DNA from: Gammaproteobacteria bacterium
Lineage (GTDB): Bacteria; Pseudomonadota; Gammaproteobacteria; BMS3Bbin11
Assembly: GCA_013150915.1 (NCBI GenBank)
Contig: JAADJE010000012.1
Span: 27,820 to 91,819, forward strand
Reading direction: 5' to 3'
DNA length: 64,000 nucleotides
Below the pieces are notes generated by a model. The model ran no database searches. It saw nothing but the letters and a program-made list of their open reading frames with translations, and had not been told where the DNA came from. A program made the translations under genes and the position numbers. Positions 8,438 through 54,984 of the stretch are shown piece by piece; position 1 is the first letter of the stretch, and each line of letters starts with the position of its first letter.

Positions 8438-8505
8438 CACTGCTGTCCCGTTAACCTGATCTTATTTTTCTGTCGTTGTTGTAGTGCTTGGGATGCAGGG
8501 AACCC
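8438..8505. repeat. Partial copy (one terminal inverted repeat plus ~50 bp) of MITE-like element family B; the complete copy is at 54655-54844
   Basis: GCACTGCTGTCCCGTTAACCTGATCTTATTTTCTGTCGTTGTTGTAGTGCTTGGGATGCAGGGAACCC is nearly identical to the reverse complement of 54771-54840. Confidence 0.8.
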
Positions 8506-8741
8506 ATTTATACCTGGAACTTTAGACTTGGAACTTGGAACTATGCCCCTTTTGTGCTATAACCGCGCCTCTTTTCAGGGGTTCTGAATTACGGACGGCC
8601 TGATTTCGAAATACGCTGTCATTTGATGACTTAACTAAAATGATCGTGGGAACACTAGCAGGGCCCGGGTGTTTGAGAGACTGTTTGTCTGTCAAACTGG
8701 CATTGCAACCCATGTGAATGTAACCCGAACGGAGATAGAAG

Positions 8742-34352: not shown

Positions 34353-34561
34353 TTTTTTTCTGGCGGGTTTCTTTTTTGCTTGATTCCTTGAATTGGTTTG
34401 TATTTTTCATTCTTCATGGACAAGTGACTTTCTTTATACGGATGAAGAGAATAACCAGAGAAATCTGCTCCGGATTTCTACTGCTCGACAGGCAAAAGGG
34501 GGTGGAAGATCAAAGACTAATGACCCAAGCTTAGAGACTAAAGACCAAATTATTCTTCTTT

Positions 34562-36010: not shown

Positions 36011-36351
36011 GTATGAGCGAGCGTGGAAGTCTCCACTCGGGTCTCGGAGAATGGGTGGTGCAGCGACTGACGGCTGTATACATGTTGTTCTTCATCGTCA
36101 TCGCCCTAATACGTCTTTCAATTTCGCCGGTTTCCACCCATGCAGACTGGCTCTTGTTATCATCGGGCCTGTTGTTCCAAATTGCTCTGCTGTTGTTCAT
36201 ATTCAGCTTGTTGGCACATGCGTGGTTAGGGTTGAAAAGTGTATTCCTTGATTATATTCATCCCTGGCGACTGCGGTTTTTGCTGTTGATGGTCGTCGCT
36301 TTATTCGTGTTTGCAACAGGTGTATGGGCACTATTGATAGTAATAACATAA
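36001..36351 (+). CDS. sdhD: Succinate dehydrogenase hydrophobic membrane anchor subunit
   Basis: 116 aa. The HSGLGEWVVQRLTAVYMLFF region aligns with the SdhD N-terminus. Stop overlaps the sdhA start (TAATG). Confidence 0.82.
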   Translation: MAVGMSERGSLHSGLGEWVVQRLTAVYMLFFIVIALIRLSISPVSTHADWLLLSSGLLFQIALLLFIFSLLAHAWLGLKSVFLDYIHPWRLRFLLLMVVALFVFATGVWALLIVIT

Positions 36352-38123
36352 TGAAAAATAACATAGAAAGAAGGCGCTTCGATTGCCTTGTTATTGGCGC
36401 AGGTGGCGCGGGGCTACGTGCTGCGTTGCAATTGGTACAGGCTGACCTGCATGTTGCGGTTGTATCAAAAGTTTTCCCCACCCGCTCCCATACCGTTGCC
36501 GCACAGGGCGGTATGAATGCTGCTTTGGGTAACCTTACACCGGACAACTGGCACTGGCATATGTATGATACGGTTAAAGGCGGTGATTTTCTGGGTGATC
36601 AGGATGCTATTGAGTATATGTGTCGTGCCGCATCGCGACTGGTAATTGAGCTCGAACATTTCGGTGTTCCCTTTACACGGCTTGAAAATGGACGCATCTA
36701 CCAGCGTCCGTTTGGCGGACAAAGCCAGAACTATGGCGGCGAACAGGCCGCACGCACCTGTGCTGCAGCAGACCGCACCGGTCATGCCATTCTGCAATCC
36801 CTCTATCAACAGAATTTACGTTCACGCACCCATTTCTTCGATGAATATTTTGCAACGGATTTACTGGTCTCTGAGGAGGGGGTAACGCAGGGTGTGATGG
36901 TGATTGATATAGAGTCCGGCCAGCCATTAATTATTGAAGCTAAAACGATTTTGTTAGCAACGGGGGGGTCGGCACGAATTTTCCGCACCAGCACCAATGC
37001 AATGATCAATACTGGCGATGGCATGGCGATGGCACTGCGTGCCGGCTTGCCGATTCAAGACATGGAGTTTGTACAATTTCATCCAACTGGCATAGCGGGT
37101 CTGGGTATGCTGATTTCTGAAGCGACACGGGGCGAGGGTGGTTATTTAATCAATAAGGATGGTGAGCGTTTCATGGAGCGATATGCCCCGCATGCACTTG
37201 ACCTGGCCTCACGCGATGTTGTTTCCCGAGCCATTGCGACTGAAATCCGCGAGGGCAGGGGCTGTGGAGAAAATGCCGATTATGTGCTCCTGCAATTACA
37301 CCATCTTGATCCGGATATTGTGAAAAGCAGGTTACCGGGTATCCGGGGTATGTCTATCCGTTTTACCGGTATCGACCCGGTTGATGCCCCGATTCCGGTT
37401 TTTCCGACAGCACATTACACGATGGGCGGTATACCGACCAACAGAAAGGGGCAGGTCGTCGTGCCATTGCACCATGCACCGGAAGAGCCACAGCAGGGCC
37501 TTTATGCAATTGGTGAATGCGCCTGCGTTTCAGTGCATGGTGCAAACCGTCTGGGGGGGAATTCCTTGCTCGATATAGTCGTGTTCGGCCGAGCGGCAGG
37601 GAATCACATCATCGATTTTCTAGCGGATAACCGCTTTCATACGCCGCTTAGCGAGGCATCTATAGAGCAGGCAATGGACCATATTCAACGTTGGGATAAA
37701 AAAGGGGAAGGTGAATCTGTCGCCGACATAACAAAACAGATGCGTGTGATGATGGAACAGTATTGTGGTGTCTTTCGTACACAGGATGTACTTGATGAAG
37801 GGGTTGAAAAAGGACGTGAACTGCTTGCCCGCCTGGCAGATGTTCGACTGGGTGATCAGAGTAAGGTGTTCAATACCGCGCGAATTGAGGCCTTTGAACT
37901 TGAGAATCAGCTGGAAGTGGCGATGGCAACCCTGCTATCCGCTGCGGCACGGACAGAAAGTCGGGGCGCACATTCACGTCTGGATTTTCCCGATCGTGAT
38001 GATCGAGAGTGGATGAAACATACCCTGTATTACAATCGTGATGGCGGTGTGCTGGATTACAAACCGGTACGTACGCAACCCCTAACTGTCGATTCCTTTC
38101 CACCGGTAGAGAGGGTCTATTAA
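36351..38123 (+). CDS. sdhA: Succinate dehydrogenase flavoprotein subunit
   Basis: The FAD-binding N-terminus (FDCLVIGAGGAG) follows ATG at 36351; the upstream in-frame codons belong to the sdhD overlap. The covalent-FAD His region (SHTVAAQGG) is present. Confidence 0.93.
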   Translation: MKNNIERRRFDCLVIGAGGAGLRAALQLVQADLHVAVVSKVFPTRSHTVAAQGGMNAALGNLTPDNWHWHMYDTVKGGDFLGDQDAIEYMCRAASRLVIELEHFGVPFTRLENGRIYQRPFGGQSQNYGGEQAARTCAAADRTGHAILQSLYQQNLRSRTHFFDEYFATDLLVSEEGVTQGVMVIDIESGQPLIIEAKTILLATGGSARIFRTSTNAMINTGDGMAMALRAGLPIQDMEFVQFHPTGIAGLGMLISEATRGEGGYLINKDGERFMERYAPHALDLASRDVVSRAIATEIREGRGCGENADYVLLQLHHLDPDIVKSRLPGIRGMSIRFTGIDPVDAPIPVFPTAHYTMGGIPTNRKGQVVVPLHHAPEEPQQGLYAIGECACVSVHGANRLGGNSLLDIVVFGRAAGNHIIDFLADNRFHTPLSEASIEQAMDHIQRWDKKGEGESVADITKQMRVMMEQYCGVFRTQDVLDEGVEKGRELLARLADVRLGDQSKVFNTARIEAFELENQLEVAMATLLSAAARTESRGAHSRLDFPDRDDREWMKHTLYYNRDGGVLDYKPVRTQPLTVDSFPPVERVY

Positions 38124-38286
38124 GGGCACCTTTATTAATCCATGAATATTCATCTTGCATCCCAAATCGTCCATCTCTGCGTTAAGCATCTTCGCAATAG
38201 CCATGCTATTGCGTGCGATCCTTGTCTTGATATGAACAATTGTGGAATACAATCTGAGCTATCCAGAATTGATAGAGGTGCCCTTT
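38122..38286. repeat. MITE-like dispersed element family A, copy 1 (~165 bp, terminal inverted repeats AAGGGCACCT / AGGTGCCCTT), filling the whole sdhA-sdhB intergenic space
   Basis: Highly similar to 49889-50048 and partly to 41525-41705. The left terminal repeat overlaps the sdhA stop codon. The right terminal repeat ends 2 nt before the sdhB ATG. Confidence 0.8.
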
Positions 38287-38288
38287 AA

Positions 38289-38993
38289 ATGATTCGCTTC
38301 TCCATCTACCGCTTCAACCCGGACAAGGACAGCAAACCTTATATGCAGGACTACCAACTGGATGAGTCAAGGCTTGAAGGTCGAAAAATGCTTCTTGATG
38401 CTATCCTGCTGTTGAAAGAACAGGATGAAAGCCTGTCATTTCGCCGTTCCTGTCGTGAAGGTGTTTGTGGCTCGGATGCAATGAATATTAACGGTAGCAA
38501 TGGACTGGCCTGTATTACACCATTAAGTTCGCTGAAGCAGCCTATCAACTTAAACCCACTGCCAGGCATGCCGGTGATTCGTGACCTGATTGTTGATATG
38601 GAGTCCTTTTACCGCCAGTACCGCACTATAAAGCCCTGGTTAATGAACGATGAACCGGAGCCGGAAATCGAGCGTTTACAATCGGATGAAGAGAGGAAGA
38701 AGCTGGATGGACTTTATGAGTGCATCCTCTGTGGGTGCTGTTCAACGGCATGTCCATCTTTCTGGTGGAATCCTGGCAAATACCTGGGGCCTGCCGCTCT
38801 ACTGCAGTCTTACCGGTTTCTGGTGGATTCCCGTGACAAGGCAACCAACGAACGCCTTGATGAACTGGAGGATCCTTTTCGTTTGTTCCGTTGTCACAGC
38901 ATTATGAATTGTGTTGAGGTCTGTCCCCGTGATTTGAATCCTGCGCTGGCCATTCATAACATACGTAAAATGCTGCTAAAACGGGCAACCTAG
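38289..38993 (+). CDS. sdhB: Succinate dehydrogenase iron-sulfur subunit
   Basis: 234 aa with 2Fe-2S (CREGVCGSDAMNING), 4Fe-4S and 3Fe-4S (CILCGCCSTACPS ... CHSIMNCVEVCP) cysteine clusters. Confidence 0.93.
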   Translation: MIRFSIYRFNPDKDSKPYMQDYQLDESRLEGRKMLLDAILLLKEQDESLSFRRSCREGVCGSDAMNINGSNGLACITPLSSLKQPINLNPLPGMPVIRDLIVDMESFYRQYRTIKPWLMNDEPEPEIERLQSDEERKKLDGLYECILCGCCSTACPSFWWNPGKYLGPAALLQSYRFLVDSRDKATNERLDELEDPFRLFRCHSIMNCVEVCPRDLNPALAIHNIRKMLLKRAT

Positions 38994-39833: not shown

Positions 39834-41477
39834 TTAGGGTTTAAGGGCACCCTTAAAATCAACAGGGATCAGCACGGTGTTTATCCGATCTAATTCTCGG
39901 TTGGTCTCCGGATAATCCCGTGTAAAATGAAGCCCGCGACTTTCTTTGCGTTGTTGTGCACTACGTATCGTTAACTCGGCAATAACAGCCAGGTTGCGTA
40001 ACTCGAGCAGGTTGTTACCTACCTTGAAATGGCTGTAAAACTCCTCAATTTCATCTTTCAGTAGTTCGATGCGGTTCTGAGCACGCTGCATGCGTTTGTT
40101 GGTTCTGACGATACCGACGTAGTCCCACATAAAGCGACGCAGCTCATCCCAGTTATGTGACACTACCACCTGTTCATCTGGATCGGTGACCTGGCTTTCA
40201 TCCCATTGAGGCAGTTCGGGAATGGGGGCAGGAGGTTGCTTAAGGCTCTTTAATATCGAACGACTGGCAGACTGAGAGAAGACCAGACATTCAAGCAATG
40301 AGTTACTCGCGAGGCGGTTTGCACCGTGAAGGCCAGTACAGGTGCATTCACCGATGGCATAGAGATCCTCGACATCTGTTCTACCATCTAGATCAGTGAT
40401 CACCCCACCGCAGGTATAGTGTGCCGCCGGTACCACCGGAATAGGGCTGGTGGTGATGTCCATACCGAACTTCAGGCAGCGTGCATAGATGGTTGGAAAA
40501 TGTTCGATGATGAAGTCGTGATGGCGATGGCTGATATCAAGATAGACGGAGTCCAGGCCGCCTTTCTTCATTTCATGGTCAATTGCGCGTGCGACGATAT
40601 CGCGGGGAGCCATTTCACCTCTTTTATCGTGGTACTTCATGAAGTGCGTTCCATCCGGCAGTAATAAACGGGCGCCTTCTCCACGTAGGGCTTCTGAGAT
40701 CAGAAATGATTTCGCCTCCGGGTGGTAAAGACAGGTTGGGTGAAACTGTACAAACTCCATATTGGCAACACGGCAGCCAGCACGCCAGGCCATGGCGATT
40801 CCGTCGCCTGTCGAGGTGTCAGGGTTGCTGGTGTAAAGATATACTTTAGATGCACCCCCTGTTGCCAGTACTGTATTAGCGGCACTGACAGACATGATTT
40901 CACCATTTTTCTGGTCTAGAATATAGGCACCGAGGCAGCGGTTCTTCGATCCGTCCAGTTTGAAGCTGGTGATCAAATCAATGGCGATAACGTGTTCGAA
41001 CAGGTGTACGTTGGGGTGATTGCGTGTTTTCTGCTCCAGCGTGGTCTCTATGGCCTTGCCTGTGGCATCTGCTGCGTGGATGACACGTCGGTGACTGTGT
41101 CCACCCTCACGGGTCAAATGGTAATGCCTGCCATCCATGTCGAGGCTAAAACCAACCCCCTGATCTATGAGCCATTGAATATTTTCAGGGCCATGTTTGA
41201 TGACGTATTCAACGCAATCCGGGTCGCAAAGTCCAGCTCCGGCATCTAGCGTGTCCTGTTTATGGGACTGTATAGAATCATTGTTACCCAGCACAGCGGC
41301 GACGCCACCTTGAGCGTAATAGCTGGATCCTTCATGAAGCTGACCTTTTGAGATAACTGCAACAGAGGCCGTGTCAGCAAGCCGCAAAGCCAGACCGAGA
41401 CCGGCCAGACCACTGCCAATTACCAGGACATCAAAATGCTTGTTTGCCATTGCACCACCACTTACGCCTTTATCCAT
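39834..41477 (-). CDS. nadB: L-aspartate oxidase
   Basis: 547 aa with the FAD-binding N-terminus ([13 protein letters not shown]). Divergent from rpoE as in E. coli and Pseudomonas. Confidence 0.92.
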
Positions 41478-41524
41478 TGATTATAACCTTATCCAGTGTC
41501 TGTTTAGGGTGTTCCCGTTAATCC

Positions 41525-41705
41525 GTAGGTGCACCGCCCCAGTGTGATTGTTTCAGTGAGGAACAGGGGCGACTGGCCCATGAAACAGAATCACACCGAA
41601 ATCGATGCGGCTACAGCGTATCAAGTCTCTGTGATACCCTTAGCTTAATATGACAGGTTCTTGAATCACAATCTGACATATCCAGAATCAAAGAGCTACC
41701 CATTG
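41525..41705. repeat. Divergent copy 3 of MITE-like element family A, in the nadB-rpoE intergenic region
   Basis: The 3' half (CTTAATATGACAGGTTCTTGAATCACAATCTGACATATCCAGAATCAAAGAGCTACCC) aligns closely with the 3' halves of the copies at 38229-38286 and 49991-50048. The 5' part is more divergent. Confidence 0.6.
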
Positions 41706-41894
41706 CTGTTCGCTCGCTGCATGTTATAGTTTGCGGGGTTTATCTAAAGAAGAATCAATACAGTGATCGGGTCGACCTTGCGGCCTGGTTTTTTGTCTGA
41801 ACAGAGAACTTTGATAGAATAATAATGTCACAGAAGACAGTATCAATACTAATGGTCAGGATGTACTGCAGAAGCGCCAGGCGCGGGGTTGCGC

Positions 41895-42470
41895 ATGTCT
41901 GAGGACACTCCGGACATCGTCCTGGTCAGGAGGACTCAACAGGGTGATCAGGCGGCCTTTGGGTTGTTGGTAGTGAAATATCAGCATCGTCTGGCCAAGT
42001 TGGTCAGTCAATATATTTATGATAGTGCTGAGGTGGAAGATGTATGCCAGGAGGCACTGATCAAGGCCTATCGTGCTATTGGTAATTTTCGTGGTGAAAG
42101 TGCATTCTACACTTGGCTTTACCGCATTGCAGTTAATACAGCGAAGAATTATCTAATTTCACAGGGGCGTAGGCCGCCGAAAACGGATATTGATGTTGAG
42201 GATGCGGTTCAAATCGAAGCCGGTGCGGTGATGCGGGAAACGGGAACCCCGGAGGCCAATGCCTTAACAAGGGAGTTGGCAGAGGCGGTGACACGTGCGG
42301 TAGAACAGTTGCCTGAGGACTTGAAAGTGGCAATTACCTTACGCGAAATTGAAGGATTGTCCTATGATGAAATCGCGGAGGTCATGGGTTGTCCGATAGG
42401 AACAGTCCGGTCGAGAATTTTTAGGGCACGTGATGCCATCGACCGAGAATTGAAACCCTTGCTCGAGTGA
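41895..42470 (+). CDS. rpoE: RNA polymerase sigma-E (sigma-24, AlgU-like) factor
   Basis: The MSEDTPDIVLVRRTQQGDQAAF... N-terminus matches RpoE/AlgU (ATG 41895). The ORF-track start at 41889 is TTG. Confidence 0.93.
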   Translation: MSEDTPDIVLVRRTQQGDQAAFGLLVVKYQHRLAKLVSQYIYDSAEVEDVCQEALIKAYRAIGNFRGESAFYTWLYRIAVNTAKNYLISQGRRPPKTDIDVEDAVQIEAGAVMRETGTPEANALTRELAEAVTRAVEQLPEDLKVAITLREIEGLSYDEIAEVMGCPIGTVRSRIFRARDAIDRELKPLLE

Positions 42471-44649: not shown

Positions 44650-46074
44650 ATGAAAAAGTTATTAATGCTACCCGCCCTGTTCCTGTTCATTTCATTTGCG
44701 ACAGTGACAGCTAATGCAAATGCATTACCCGATTTTGTACACCTGGTTGAAGAACAGGGTAAGGCAGTGGTTAATATAAGTACCAAGCAAAAATCAAAGT
44801 CTTTACAATCGGGGTCGGGAGAGTTACGTCTACCCGATCTGCCGCAAGACAGTCCTTTCTATGAATTCTTTGAGAAATTCTTTGGTCAGTTACCGCAGTC
44901 TCCACAGGGAACATACCCACATCCCAGTATTAGATCCCTCGGCTCAGGCTTTATTATTTCTGCAGATGGTTATGTGTTGACTTCTGCACATGTGGTAGAC
45001 AATGCTGATGAAATTGTTGTCCGCATGACAGACAGACGGGAAATGCTGGCAAAAGTAATCGGTACTGATAAACGCAGTGACGTTGCTTTGTTGAAAATTG
45101 AGGCAAAAAATTTGCCCTATTTGAAACCGGGTAAACCAGATGAACTAAAGGTTGGAGAATGGGTATTGGCAATCGGCTCACCCTTTGGTTTTGAGAATAC
45201 CGCGACGGCGGGTATTGTTTCTGCCAAGGGTCGAAGCCTGCCAAACGAAAATTATATTCCTTTCATTCAAACGGATGTGGCGATTAACCCGGGTAATTCG
45301 GGTGGTCCACTGTTCAATATGGATGGTGAGGTTGTAGGGATCAACGCCCAGATATACAGCCGTTCAGGCGGTTATATGGGGCTGGCGTTTTCTGTTCCTA
45401 TCGATTTAGCAATACAGGTTGCCGATCAACTGCGTGCTGGTGGGAAAGTTAAGCGTGGCTGGCTTGGCGTGACCATCCAGGATGTAAATCGTGATCTGGC
45501 TGAAGCCTTTGATATGGACAAACCTTTTGGTGCGCTGGTTTCATCTGTTCTTCCAGATAGTCCAGCATCAAAATCAGATTTACAGGTGCAGGATGTGATA
45601 GTTGAATACAACGGTAAACCCGTCAGACTTTCTTCAGATCTGCCGTTTTATGTTGGGCGCAGCAAGGTTGGGACAACTGCAACTTTAAAAGTTTTACGTG
45701 CTGGAAAATCACGAAATGTGAAAATAAGCATTGGTCAGCTCCCAGAATCAGACGTAGCTACTTTGAATACAAAAAAGCATAATTTGAAAAAAGACACACC
45801 CGATCTGCTCGGCATCTATGTGCGTGATTTATCCCGGGAGGAGAAAAAATTACTGGATCTGGATTATGGCGTTCTTGTCGTCCAGCTTAAAGCAAATTCA
45901 GCGGCGGCGAATGCAGGGATCAGAAAGGGTGATGTGCTTCTTTTGCTAAATAAGAAAAAGGTCAGGAATGCTGAGACGTACAAGGCCATTGCTGGATCAT
46001 TGAAGAAAGGCCGGCCTGCTGCAGTATTGGTAAGACGAGGCAATGGATCACAGTTTCTTGTGCTAAAACCATAG
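44650..46074 (+). CDS. degP: Periplasmic serine endoprotease DegP/MucD (HtrA family, two PDZ domains)
   Basis: Signal peptide starts at MKKLLMLPALFLF (ATG 44650). Catalytic triad motifs (TSAHVV, D, GNSGGPL). Two PDZ domains. Confidence 0.88.
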   Translation: MKKLLMLPALFLFISFATVTANANALPDFVHLVEEQGKAVVNISTKQKSKSLQSGSGELRLPDLPQDSPFYEFFEKFFGQLPQSPQGTYPHPSIRSLGSGFIISADGYVLTSAHVVDNADEIVVRMTDRREMLAKVIGTDKRSDVALLKIEAKNLPYLKPGKPDELKVGEWVLAIGSPFGFENTATAGIVSAKGRSLPNENYIPFIQTDVAINPGNSGGPLFNMDGEVVGINAQIYSRSGGYMGLAFSVPIDLAIQVADQLRAGGKVKRGWLGVTIQDVNRDLAEAFDMDKPFGALVSSVLPDSPASKSDLQVQDVIVEYNGKPVRLSSDLPFYVGRSKVGTTATLKVLRAGKSRNVKISIGQLPESDVATLNTKKHNLKKDTPDLLGIYVRDLSREEKKLLDLDYGVLVVQLKANSAAANAGIRKGDVLLLLNKKKVRNAETYKAIAGSLKKGRPAAVLVRRGNGSQFLVLKP

Positions 46075-46155
46075 GGTACCTCTATTAATTATTCTCCCGA
46101 GGGGAATCACTTTCCTCTCGGTGCCTTCAATAGCGTATAATTTGCGCTTTAATTT

Positions 46156-48815: not shown

Positions 48816-49205
48816 ATGGAGAATTTTAAACGTGCCAGTAATCAAAAAGGTGCATCAATGTGGGGCCTTATCGGCGTGGCCGCTCTGATCGTTCTTTTTT
48901 CTTTGGTTACAATGAAGCTGGTTCCTGCATATCTTGATAACAATAAGGTTACACATGCGCTTGAATCTCTTGGGAAAACGCCAGGCGTTGGAAATTGGAG
49001 TCGTCGACAGATTCTGGATAAAATCGATAATACACTTTATATTGACATGGCGGCTGACTTGTTAAATTTAAACGAGGCGCTGAAGATTAGAAAAGTAAGA
49101 AATACCAAGGTGATAAGCATTAATTATGAAAGGGTAATCCCCATGGCCTACAATATCAGCGCATTGCTGGAATTCGAAAATAGTGTCGAAGTCCCACTTA
49201 GGTAA
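48816..49205 (+). CDS. DUF4845-family small membrane-anchored protein
   Basis: A strong AGGAGGAG ribosome-binding site lies 5-12 nt upstream of ATG 48816. A single N-terminal transmembrane helix. Conserved location between lepB and rnc in Pseudomonas-like genomes. Confidence 0.6.
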   Translation: MENFKRASNQKGASMWGLIGVAALIVLFSLVTMKLVPAYLDNNKVTHALESLGKTPGVGNWSRRQILDKIDNTLYIDMAADLLNLNEALKIRKVRNTKVISINYERVIPMAYNISALLEFENSVEVPLR

Positions 49206-49911
49206 TGAAAAGATACAGAGGCTTCAGAAGTCACTGGACTATAATTTCAATTCCAGGCCAGAGTTGTTAATACGTGCATTAACACATAGAAGCCACGGCT
49301 CGGATAACTACGAAAGACTGGAATTCCTTGGAGACAGTCTACTGGGTTTTATCATTGCGGATACGATTTGTGAAAGGTTTCCCGATGCAGATGAGGGGCA
49401 ATTGACCCGATTGCGTGCGAACCTGGTCAGACAGGAAACTCTGGCAGAACTTGGTAGAGAATTAGATCTGGGGAGGTATCTTATTCTCGGTCCGGGTGCA
49501 CTGAAAAGCGGTGATCAGGGGCGAGACTCCGTTCTTTCTGATGTCGTAGAGGCAATTATCGGTGTCATCTATCTCGATGGAGGAATGCTGCCCTGTCGAC
49601 AATTTGTCACCCGGATATTTGCCGACAGACTTGCTTTGTGTGAACCGCATAAAATCCTTAAAGACCCGAAGACCCGCCTGCAGGAGTTTTTACAGCAACA
49701 ATCACAGAAACTCCCCGAATACACCATTCTCGATATAAGCGGTCCTCCACACAAGCAGTCATTCAAAGTGCAGTGTCTGATAGCAGAAGGCAAGCAAGTA
49801 TTCTGTGGGCGAGGTGCTAGCCGTCGTAAGGCTGAGCAGGATTCTGCTGAAAAGGCCTTACGGGCCATTTCTAAACAATCAGGGCTTTCGGGCACCTCTG
49901 TTAATCCATGA
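49183..49911 (+). CDS. rnc: Ribonuclease III
   Basis: RNase III signature (ERLEFLGDS) and a C-terminal dsRBD. GTG start overlapping the previous gene. The last ~7 codons are contributed by the terminal repeat of MITE A copy 2. Confidence 0.9.
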   Translation: MSKSHLGNEKIQRLQKSLDYNFNSRPELLIRALTHRSHGSDNYERLEFLGDSLLGFIIADTICERFPDADEGQLTRLRANLVRQETLAELGRELDLGRYLILGPGALKSGDQGRDSVLSDVVEAIIGVIYLDGGMLPCRQFVTRIFADRLALCEPHKILKDPKTRLQEFLQQQSQKLPEYTILDISGPPHKQSFKVQCLIAEGKQVFCGRGASRRKAEQDSAEKALRAISKQSGLSGTSVNP

Positions 49912-50048
49912 ATATTCAACTTCCATCCCAAATCGTCTCTCTCTGCGTTAAGAATCTTCGCAATAGCTAGCTATTACGTACGATCCTTGCCTTGATATGT
50001 ACAATTTGGAATGCAATCTGACCTATCCAGAATTAATAGAGGTGCCCC
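49889..50048. repeat. MITE-like dispersed element family A, copy 2, occupying the rnc-era intergenic space and ending immediately before the era ATG
   Basis: ~85% identical to 38122-38286 over ~160 bp. Terminal repeats GGGCACCTCT ... AGAGGTGCCC. Confidence 0.8.
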
Positions 50049-50049
50049 T

Positions 50050-50949
50050 ATGACAAAAGCTTTCCGCGCAGGTTTTATTGCCATACTGGGGCGACCAAAT
50101 GTAGGCAAGTCGACATTATTGAATCGCATCATAGGCAAGAAAATCAGCATTACATCGCCTAAGCCTCAGACCACACGGCATCGTTTACTGGGTATCTGTA
50201 CAACAGAAGAACATCAAATGGTTTTTGTGGATACGCCCGGGGTACATCTTGGTAGCAAACGCTATATCAACCAGATCATGAATAAGACCGCCGCGAATGC
50301 TCTGATAGGGGTTGATGTTACGCTACTGATGATCACATCTGAAGGGTGGAAGGAAGAGGACCATCATGCCCTGAAGTTGGCACAGCAGGAAAAAATGAAT
50401 CTGATAGTGTTGATTAACAAAATTGATAAATTGAAAAATAAGAATCAACTCCTGCCATTGATTGAATTCACATCACAACTACATGAATTTAAAGAGATTA
50501 TCCCCATTTCCTCTGCCTATGGAACTAATGTTCAATCATTAATGGATGTTTTACCTGAGTATCTTCCGGAAAGTCCTCTCCTGTTTCCTGAAGGGCAGAC
50601 GACAGATAAAGGTGCTCAATTTATCATTTCAGAAACTATAAGGGAGAAACTTTTTCGCCAACTGCGCGATGAAATTCCTTATACACTTGCGGTAGAAATC
50701 CAGCAGTTAAAGATGACGGAGTCACTGATACGGGCAGAGACTATCATCTGGGTAGAAAAAGAGAGTCAAAAAGGCATAATCATTGGTAAGAAAGGTGAAA
50801 AATTACGTACTGTCGGAACGCATGCCAGGGAGGAACTGGAGTCCTATTTTGAACGAAAAGTATTTCTACAGCTTTGGGTGAAAGTGAGAGAAAACTGGTC
50901 TGATGATGCAGTAATGTTACGCTCAATTGGATATATAGAGGAAGAATGA
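50050..50949 (+). CDS. era: GTPase Era
   Basis: N-terminus AGFIAILGRPNVGKSTLLN (G1 motif) beginning at ATG 50050. C-terminal KH domain. Confidence 0.92.
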   Translation: MTKAFRAGFIAILGRPNVGKSTLLNRIIGKKISITSPKPQTTRHRLLGICTTEEHQMVFVDTPGVHLGSKRYINQIMNKTAANALIGVDVTLLMITSEGWKEEDHHALKLAQQEKMNLIVLINKIDKLKNKNQLLPLIEFTSQLHEFKEIIPISSAYGTNVQSLMDVLPEYLPESPLLFPEGQTTDKGAQFIISETIREKLFRQLRDEIPYTLAVEIQQLKMTESLIRAETIIWVEKESQKGIIIGKKGEKLRTVGTHAREELESYFERKVFLQLWVKVRENWSDDAVMLRSIGYIEEE

Positions 50950-51683: not shown

Positions 51684-51697
51684 GTCAAAATCATGGA

Positions 51698-51804
51698 GAC
51701 CAAAGACCAAAGACCAAAGACCAAAGACCAAAGACCAAAGACCAAAGACCAAAGACCAAAGACCAAAGACACCAAAGACCAAAGACCAAAGACCAAAGAC
51801 CAAA
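51698..51804. repeat. Heptanucleotide tandem repeat (GACCAAA)x15; the eleventh unit carries a 2-nt insertion (GACACCAAA)
   Basis: Direct reading of the sequence: ten perfect units, one 9-nt variant, then four perfect units, between recO and pdxJ. Confidence 0.95.
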
Positions 51805-51830
51805 GGCTAAATAACGTAAACCGTAAACCC

Positions 51831-54599: not shown

Positions 54600-54654
54600 C
54601 GAGATATCTCCATTAGATACAGGTTAGAAATGAGATTGTTCATATTCAAGTATA

Positions 54655-54844
54655 CTGAGACACTGCTGTCCCGTTAACGCCACATCGTCATGCCGGGCTT
54701 GACCCCCGGTATCCAGTAAGTCGTTGAAACCGCTGGATTCCGGCCTGCGCCGGAATGACAACCCCATTGGGTTCCCTGCATCCCAAGCACTACGACAACG
54801 ACAGCAAAATAAGATCAGGTTAACGGGACAGCCGTGACACTGAG
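54655..54844. repeat. Complete MITE-like element family B (~190 bp) with ~24-bp terminal inverted repeats (CTGAGACACTGCTGTCCCGTTAAC ... GTTAACGGGACAGCCGTGACACTGAG) and an internal palindrome
   Basis: Terminal inverted repeats read directly from the sequence. Internal perfect palindrome ATTCCGGCCTGCGCCGGAAT at 54737-54756. Partial copy at 8438-8505. Confidence 0.8.
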
Positions 54845-54984
54845 ATTATATCTATTCTCGCAGATATTAAGGGCCGCTCTATTAATTCATGAATAATAGC
54901 GGTGTTTTTTAGGGTGAAATTATAATTAATCGTCCCCATATCTCTGCTAATATTAGATTCTAAACACTGTACAGGAGTATAACT

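Follow-up and report, generated by a model that had tools for sequence, protein, structure and literature searches.

Among the short palindromic repeats of bacteria, the Correia, ERIC, Chunjie and bcr1 elements are palindromic, co-transcribed and structurally conserved, and some of them lie in operons or bring ribosome sites to their neighbors (PMC10969869, PMC3184786). Here, we describe a miniature transposable element with inverted repeats (MITE) of this type in a 64,000-nucleotide stretch of a Gammaproteobacteria bacterium (GenBank assembly GCA_013150915.1, contig JAADJE010000012.1, positions 27,820 to 91,819 of the forward strand), referred to below as the window. The window holds one full element between sdhA and sdhB (copy 1, 38124-38283, + strand, 160 nt) and another between rnc and era (copy 2, 49890-50047, + strand, 158 nt). 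We are confident that both are members of a multi-copy, non-autonomous transposable element of ~158-160 nt. The MITE is of the same bacterial type as the elements named above, yet it is a member of none of those families, and it is not a new mechanism. Its recurrent siting at operon junctions and the strand-specific constraint on its hairpin make the family somewhat more interesting.

Like the window MITE, Correia elements (CREE/NEMIS) are imperfect full-length palindromes of ~100-155 bp with terminal inverted repeats and many copies near genes, and co-transcription, repeat hairpins, RNase III cleavage and regulatory motifs have been reported for them (PMC10969869, PMC3184786). The MITE differs in its hosts, in having no promoter-like site, and in a repeat sequence that appears unrelated to the Correia repeat. 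Correia elements duplicate TA, whereas the duplication of the MITE is 4 bp long, variable and often without TA (AGAA, TGCA). The enterobacterial ERIC/IRU and RU-2/YPAL elements are likewise imperfect palindromes (127-168 bp) of transcribed regions that occur between operon genes, and they can overlap the ends of open reading frames (ORFs) and carry small ORFs (PMC2759123, PMC10969869). In contrast, the hosts of the MITE are uncultured Gamma- and Betaproteobacteria. Chunjie, from Geobacter uraniireducens, shares AT-richness and very stable RNA hairpins with the MITE; it is reported to measure 178-235 bp, to have repeats of 21 bp and to be flanked by direct repeats of 9 bp (PMC3184786), compared with 158-160 bp and a 4-bp duplication in the window. 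The bcr1 element of the Bacillus cereus group is also similar in its length (~155 bp), short direct repeats, transcription and RNA-level compensatory changes, but has a Firmicute host, a 5-bp duplication (PMC3184786) and a cruciform-like rather than a single-hairpin fold. As the MITE appears to do, the Neisseria REP2 repeat places a ribosome-binding site immediately upstream of genes; it lacks terminal inverted repeats and adds a promoter and an ATG (PMC3184786), whereas the MITE has inverted repeats, a duplication, no promoter, and leaves the ATG to the host. Finally, REP/REPIN and IS200/IS605-type elements are short GC-rich hairpins that have neither transposon-like terminal inverted repeats nor a duplication, unlike the long AT-rich repeats and 4-bp duplication found here. 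The end-repeat string gave only chance matches in the searchable literature and most of the hosts are uncultured, so the family, compared here with published descriptions of the known ones, is probably undescribed. An Rfam 15 scan of the whole window returned only a tRNA above the gathering threshold and no family for the MITE, which at relaxed thresholds matched only plant microRNA hairpins at chance level (18 bits against a threshold of 200).

Copies 1 and 2 share 89% identity across 160 nt (E = 2e-54 in blastn). The exact boundaries of the element are GGGCACC...GGTGCCC, where similarity ceases precisely across ~55 elements, and the terminal inverted repeats are at least 18-25 nt long (GGGCACCTCTATTAATYCATGA). 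In copy 1, the left repeat (38124-38149, + strand, GGGCACCTTTATTAATCCATGAATAT) contains a frame-1 TAA, a frame-2 TGA and, at positions 19-21 of the element, an ATG, and the right repeat (38258-38283, + strand) ends in ...CCAGAATTGATAGAGGTGCCC. The string GGGCACCTYTRTYAATYC lies inverted at both ends of copies 1 and 2 and of ~55 elements elsewhere. With up to 3 mismatches allowed, the 18-nt end pattern occurs six times in the window, compared with 0.6 matches expected by chance. The two arms align along their entire length, making the whole element an imperfect palindrome that is predicted to fold as a full-length hairpin. Its largest ORF is at most 56 aa, and no gene lies inside. The original prediction, made from the sequence alone, had described three full copies with inverted repeats of 9 nt bounded by AA and TT. 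The repeats and two of the copies stand; the third is a right-arm fragment, the repeats are longer, and the AA...TT outside the ends is part of the 4-bp target duplication and not of the repeat, because these flanks vary as direct repeats.

To assess the distribution of the family, we scanned species-representative genomes with the end pattern (596 Gb, in which ~280 single matches are expected by chance) and found at least 118 loci. Isolated matches in gut Firmicutes and similar organisms are attributable to this chance expectation. Inverted end pairs 74-320 nt apart recur in metagenome-assembled genomes (MAGs) of Sedimenticola, Gallionella, Methylotenera, Polaromonas, Thiotrichaceae, Methylococcaceae, Chromatiaceae, Arenicellales and Pseudohongiella, and occur also in the cultured Gilvimarinus xylanilyticus; elements with the same ends are spread over many Gamma- and Betaproteobacteria. 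Among the carriers are complete chromosomes of Pseudohongiella (OZ243108 and OZ245938) and of G. xylanilyticus HB14. They fall into size classes of 141, 158-160, 197-211, 247-265 and 311-320 nt that share only the ~25 nt at each end, which is the expectation for MITEs moved by one type of transposase. Copies 81-93% identical to those of the window are present in four other MAGs (Arenicellales DBRS4.bin12, CSMAG_729, CSMAG_2624 and BMS9Abin25). A subfamily-specific 19-mer identified 93 stretches in metagenomes, and together with loci fetched earlier these yielded 55 distinct full-length subfamily sites. Several contigs break inside the MITE, as expected of a repeat.

The target duplication is 4 bp long, AT-rich and most often TTAA/TTAA. 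Matching flank pairs in ~55 elements of other genomes include TAAA, ATAT, TACC, TGAT, AGAA, TCTA, TTAT, TGCA and others, and among the subfamily sites with both flanks, 31/53 match at all four positions, compared with 22% for unrelated flank pairs. With duplications at most copies, empty sites at both junctions and 55 distinct sites, the earlier view of the repeat as MITE-type mobile DNA holds, and the count of copies and target duplications in relatives that had been proposed as its check came out in its favor. The opposite view, an ordinary local duplication or a chance similarity, could point to the mere two full copies in the window and to copy 2, which has no matching flanks. It is refuted by the same 158-160-nt sequence recurring in unrelated contexts, in the 93 metagenome stretches and in dozens of genome loci, and by the empty sites; the excess of end-pattern matches in the window also speaks against it, and we give it practically no weight.

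Both full insertions are intercistronic and lie within operons, sdhCDAB and lepA-lepB-rnc-era-recO-pdxJ. As assigned by NCBIfam, sdhA (36324-38123) precedes copy 1 and sdhB (38289-38993, + strand, ATG at 38289-38291) follows it, whereas rnc (49183-49911, + strand, TGA stop at 49909-49911) runs into copy 2, with era, recO and pdxJ downstream. The right end of the element stands 2 nt before the era ATG (50050), as had been proposed for both genes within 2-3 nt, and 5 nt before the sdhB ATG (38289).

Comparison with related loci (L-numbers denote fetched relative, genome or metagenome loci) revealed both filled and empty versions of these junctions. The closest named relatives of the source organism are Arenicellales, with 87-94% protein identity. 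The rnc-era junction is empty in an Arenicellales MAG (L122, Era 87% identical), where the sequence GGATAAATCAGTACTATGAAA leads from the rnc TAA over nine bases to the era ATG. Both a 98% relative (L119/L120, with TTAT / ATAT as flanks) and an 88% relative (L121) carry the insertion. In L119, the junction reads AGA TAA TCAGGGCTTAT, then the element, then ATATGACA; the NTAT that served as target shares the AT of the era ATG, and for this reason the MITE ends 2 nt before the era ATG. The sdhA-sdhB junction is empty in L126 (94% SdhB identity), where GTGTATTGAG directly adjoins GTGATTCGC, and in L127 (91% SdhB identity), where GTGTATTAAG adjoins GTGCTGCGT. It is filled in L123-L125 and L128, with an identical element at the same site in L123-L125 (relatives 97-100% identical). 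Here, the target is a TTAA that contains the sdhA stop. In the empty L126 and L127, the sdhA stop lies 1 nt from a GTG start of sdhB by sequence reading (1-4 nt by gene call), so that across the two empty junctions the neighboring genes are 1-9 nt apart, and in L127 the native ribosome site GAGAGGG sits within the last sdhA codons. Although both junctions are empty in the Arenicellales MAG, it has copies of its own elsewhere (L011, L097, L112 and L115; 81-92% identical), and the family has therefore been active in both lineages.

Two further features of these loci were observed. The start codon of sdhB is GTG at both empty sites (L126 and L127) and ATG at all filled sites, including the window (38289-38291), a change that may be compensation after displacement of the native ribosome site. 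In L121 (positions 1-162), the hairpin tip of the rnc-era MITE is replaced by ~55 unrelated bases and the contig ends inside the element, which may reflect a nested insertion or a rearranged copy.

The positions of the insertions also bear on the proposal that the MITE supplies a promoter or a new 5' leader, such that sdhB and era would be transcribed from inside mobile DNA. Correia elements in Neisseria have been reported with functional promoters (PMC3184786), and by sequence reading the right arm of the MITE holds TTGATA...TACAAT-like hexamers. These hexamers are 14-15 nt apart, however, and no sigma-70-type match with a spacing of 16-18 nt is found in either copy on either strand. Furthermore, the operons are conserved and their genes nearly abut when the sites are empty, so transcription from upstream already covers both sites, and the family also occurs between other tightly linked operon genes. 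A promoter function is thus very unlikely, and what the original prediction had taken for rewiring of 5' untranslated regions is better described as the insertion of intercistronic spacers between adjacent genes of conserved operons.

The same stop-element-start architecture recurs at other conserved gene pairs. Our survey of junctions covered the 55 subfamily sites and one genome locus, with gene identities partly confirmed by Pfam. The distance from the end of the MITE to the downstream ATG is 4 nt at hslV-hslU, 5 nt at hscA-fdx, 7 nt at pilT-pilU (where the repeat is changed to GGAGGTG), 7 nt between an ABC ATPase and a permease, 8 nt upstream of nuoN, 16 nt at rsfS-rlmH and 22 nt at a rluD-like and pgeF-like pair. 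At many sites, the upstream ORF stops either at the TAA of the duplication or at the TGA of the repeat, 22 nt inside the MITE. The bcr1 element is not known for recurrent siting of this kind. The siting probably follows from the preferred targets (TTAA, TAAA, TATA and ATAT), which have the make-up of stop/start junctions, and once in place the insertions would persist as operon-compatible spacers, each end offering stop codons in two of the three inward frames.

Each repeat reads outward to ...ATAGAGGTGCCC, which contains GAGGTG, the six-base complement of the conserved 3' end of 16S rRNA (CACCUC). In copy 1, this motif (38275-38280, + strand) lies 8 nt before the sdhB ATG as a presumptive Shine-Dalgarno sequence, and in copy 2 (50039-50044, + strand) it precedes the era ATG (50050-50052) by 5 nt. 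For sdhB, the native ribosome site, known from the empty site in L127, is now displaced 165 nt upstream, which makes the GAGGTG of the repeat its obvious candidate replacement. The earlier assignment of an element-borne AGAGG as the Shine-Dalgarno sequence therefore keeps its position (AGAGG/GAGGTG at these distances) and acquires a qualification, namely that in the free mRNA the hairpin stem is predicted to hold all of GAGGTG in base pairs, with a pairing probability of 1.00 in both copies. Being paired with the left repeat, it would be usable only if the base of the stem is opened. On balance, and judging from motif and spacing, we lean toward GAGGTG serving as the ribosome site of sdhB and era.

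A mechanism by which the stem might open can be outlined. The outward GAGGTG would land 5-8 nt before the downstream ATG and replace the displaced native site, while the hairpin would place the upstream stop next to the downstream start. A ribosome terminating on the upstream gene would cover the left repeat, and ribosomes that finish the upstream gene, or that translate an ORF from the left-arm ATG, could unzip the left arm and expose GAGGTG, with translational coupling across the MITE as the outcome. The upstream stop codon lies at the left end of the MITE in the case of sdhA and 22 nt inside it in the case of rnc. Copy 1 contains a possible bridging ORF (38142-38288, + strand) of 48 codons that opens with the left-arm ATG and closes with a TAA immediately next to the sdhB ATG (TAAATG), which is suggestive only. 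Copy 2 has the consensus state of the subfamily, a short ORF of 20 codons (49908-49970, + strand) from the left-arm ATG to a TAG at the hairpin tip. The tip of copy 1 is 2 nt longer than that of copy 2, and the loss of the tip stop gives rise to the 48-codon ORF. Whole-element ORFs are found at 4/12 sites where a start codon lies no more than 12 nt from the right end and at 3/43 others (Fisher p = 0.034, n = 55), a suggestive enrichment at tight junctions. As a mechanism, coupling across the MITE remains a tentative proposal, and one we hold to be possible rather than probable.

Taken as a whole, the reading we favor is that of a MITE that persists as an operon-compatible spacer, with GAGGTG as the ribosome site and coupling across the element, and we regard this overall statement as probable. 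Several observations weigh against it. A search of ~1.4 Mb of fetched loci, of plasmids and of viral contigs found no transposase bearing these ends. The flanks of copy 1 (TTAA at 38120-38123, which includes the sdhA TAA stop, and TTTA at 38284-38287) match at only 3/4 bases, and those of copy 2 (TTTC / CTAT) no longer match, agreeing at 0-1 of 4 bases. In an equilibrium model with the left arm blocked by a ribosome footprint, GAGGTG stays paired with probabilities of 0.90 for sdhB and 0.59 for era; this folding model predicts only a partial release of the motif, and we draw no support for coupling from it. The motif of the repeat is degenerate at two further tight junctions (TAGGTA in L176 and AAGTTG in L201), and is therefore not always needed. 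Finally, the repeats of all subfamilies include GAGGTG, and it may reflect transposase binding, its likeness to a ribosome site being accidental.

The search for the parent transposase extended to the surroundings of the repeats. When all ORFs with a length of 150 aa or more that lie up to 2.5 kb from a repeat match were clustered, only ABC ATPases, histidine kinases and similar proteins recurred and no transposase was among them, and no fetched locus contained unpaired repeats 600-4000 nt apart. Two candidates for an insertion sequence (IS) were rejected: a recurrent lone repeat in Gallionella S40-4, considered as an IS end, is actually a 141-nt MITE cut by k=99 contig ends, and a pair of repeats 2308 nt apart in L087 consists of two separate elements. 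The 4-bp duplication and the G-rich ends recall the IS5 family, although the observed duplications (TACC, AGAA, TGAT, TGCA and others) are looser than the YTAR target of IS5.

The RNA fold had likewise been proposed as a check, and a full-length hairpin is indeed predicted. The sense-RNA hairpins of the two copies have predicted energies of -54.5 and -43.7 kcal/mol (z = -5.4 and -4.2). To assess conservation of this structure, we aligned 14 members of the MITE family, down to ~70% identity. In this alignment, the hairpin comprises 62 pairs and is 94% paired, compared with 35-45% in slid controls. Compensatory double changes occur in 27/62 pairs, and 0/500 shuffles reach as much.

The conservation is asymmetric between the strands. 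On the strand complementary to the window + strand, the alignment contains 97 G-U cells and 14 A-C cells, and at eight pairs G-U is found in at least 5 of the 14 sequences, while no pair is A-C that often. The subfamily consensus is predicted to fold at -81.5 kcal/mol on the complementary strand and at -44.8 kcal/mol on the + strand, and the members that bear CCAGAAT all show a strand difference of 10-32 kcal/mol, except one near zero. Arm mismatches on the consensus alone (8 vs 3) are not significant, and the asymmetry rests on the multi-sequence counts. The 247-265-nt classes fold symmetrically on both strands. Among the genes that end at a MITE end, 23 enter via the left end and 6 via the right end (p = 0.002, n = 29), and between co-directional genes the count of orientations is 22 vs 7. 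Owing to this bias toward left-end entry, mRNAs mostly carry the weakly folding strand. The pattern fits two forces, one selecting for pairing on a single strand and the other keeping this strand out of transcripts.

These data bear on the possibility that the MITE has been exapted as a regulatory hairpin, that is, as a target of RNase III or another RNase, or as a translational or transcriptional brake that would set the sdhA:sdhB and rnc:era ratios, in the case of rnc as a feedback loop on era. The stability of the predicted sense-RNA hairpins and the burial of the ribosome-binding motif in the predicted stem are in line with such a role, and it has been reported that RNase III cleaves Correia hairpins and that ERIC has an RNase E effect (PMC10969869). 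The insertions have also been kept across lineages down to 88% Era identity; a neutral insertion that is unable to excise would, however, be equally expected to be retained, and close relatives do without the MITE. The sense strand, moreover, is the weak folder, and the orientation count of 23 vs 6 looks like avoidance of structure rather than its use. No intrinsic terminator-like site was found in or around either copy. We consider a regulatory hairpin to be rather improbable.

The strand-specific constraint could alternatively indicate, instead of a cut-and-paste MITE, an element that moves in the form of single-stranded DNA, as derivatives of REP/RAYT or IS200/IS605 do, or that acts as an RNA of the opposite strand. 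The compensatory changes, the excess of G-U over A-C cells and the difference in consensus folding energy between the strands all speak for such a reading. The long terminal inverted repeats and the variable 4-bp duplication at dozens of sites speak against it, and the REP/RAYT and IS200/IS605 families are not known to make a target duplication. In addition, the two strands fold equally well in the 247-265-nt subfamilies that have these ends, and no Rfam family is matched. We therefore regard this alternative as highly unlikely.

A more far-reaching version of the favored reading would make the MITE a self-contained intercistronic cassette that colonizes the stop/start junctions of essential operons and relays coupling across 160 nt, combined with strand-specific selection on the hairpin for propagation. 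The entry side has stops and the left arm an ATG that overlaps the TGA as ATGA, a bridging ORF, either short or as long as the whole element, would unzip the hairpin, and the GAGGTG on the exit side would be exposed. The hairpin would be under purifying selection on the strand kept out of mRNAs, and a single-stranded RNA or DNA form would be needed for propagation. We think this extended scheme unlikely.

The insertion at rnc-era also bears on how both neighbors are annotated. The last 7 codons of rnc (49891-49911, + strand; G T S V N P, then stop) come from the left arm of copy 2, as had been proposed, and the TGA overlaps the left-arm ATG as ATGA. L119 has the same insertion and keeps the ancestral rnc stop TAA (2827-2829), where the window has CAA (49864-49866), which extends RNase III by 11 residues into the MITE. 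Read in this way from the sequence, the MITE-encoded tail is a later accident, secondary to the insertion. At the other end, the match to the Era profile sets in only at residue 18 when the ORF is read from 50011, and homologues of 299 aa correspond to the reading from 50050; the true start of era is therefore the ATG at 50050, and 50011 is false. The false start is an ATG of copy 2 in frame with era, 13 codons upstream (50011-50049), with which ORF callers give 312 aa instead of 299. Copy 1 has ATA at the same position.

Besides the full copies, the window contains shorter remnants of the family. The presumed third copy is a right-arm remnant of ~65 nt (41638-41701, + strand, 76-89% identity to the family) in the spacer between nadB (39834-41477, minus strand, NCBIfam) and rpoE (41889-42470, NCBIfam). 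The 140 nt to its left are unrelated to the family, and 41507-41524 may be a vestigial left end by a weak sequence reading. The original prediction had placed this copy in the nadB-rpoE regulatory region; the remnant instead sits upstream of the spacer block that is conserved with L127, and a regulatory role for it is not supported. That block (41800-41835, AGAGAACTTTGATAGAATAATAATGTCACAGAAGACAG) contains GAACTT, ~16 nt and TCACA, a pattern that may resemble a sigma-E-type promoter. Two short end remnants were missing from the original prediction. A probable solo repeat remnant (46074-46091, + strand, GGGTACCTCTATTAATTA) directly follows the stop of a DegP-like protease gene and precedes lepA, in a spacer that is otherwise conserved with L127, and a left-end remnant (~54871-54905, + strand) is folded into a mini-hairpin followed by a T run.

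A second repeat family of 69 nt occurs in inverted orientation at 8438-8506 and 54768-54836 (96% identical). Its probable full element at ~54650-54845 is apparently bounded by CACTGCTGTCCCGTTAAC...GTTAACGGGACAGC and contains REP-like palindromes (GTCATGCCGGG...CCGGCCTGCGCCGGAATGAC). In Gallionella sp. S40-4 (L004, 4994-5103), an element of 110 nt combines the terminal repeats of the MITE family with an interior REP-like palindrome (GTCACACCGGCGAAGGCCGGTG...CCGGCCTTCGCCGGAATGAC) that resembles one at 54680-54760 of the window; the same MITE ends can evidently carry unrelated cargo. Between recO and pdxJ, the heptamer AGACCAA is repeated in tandem (51697-51805, 15.3 copies; also at 34506-34549). 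Contigs with a 98% identical Era contain 8.1 copies (L119, 4655-4711) and 9.1 copies (L120, 4655-4718), and the Arenicellales relative contains none. The 7-base unit shifts the frame of the ORF that leads into pdxJ, which starts at 51693 and matches the PdxJ profile from residue 47. This tract upstream of pdxJ looks slippage-prone and variable in copy number.

For the organism studied here, these results correct the annotation of the window: insertions account for the 165-nt gaps in sdhAB and rnc-era, the tail of rnc comes from the element, and era starts at 50050 rather than at 50011. The same corrections should apply in many related uncultured genomes, in which the repeat also breaks assemblies. 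As a whole, the family represents many natural and independent experiments in which a 160-nt hairpin has been placed between translationally coupled genes (sdhAB, rnc-era, hslVU, hscA-fdx and pilTU) without the loss of the downstream gene. Its strand-specific structural constraint is unusually clear for a transposon that has inverted repeats and makes a target duplication. Should the coupling and strand-specific readings prove false, it would be one more MITE family; if either is true, it would offer a useful model of the mutual accommodation between mobile DNA and the expression of operons.

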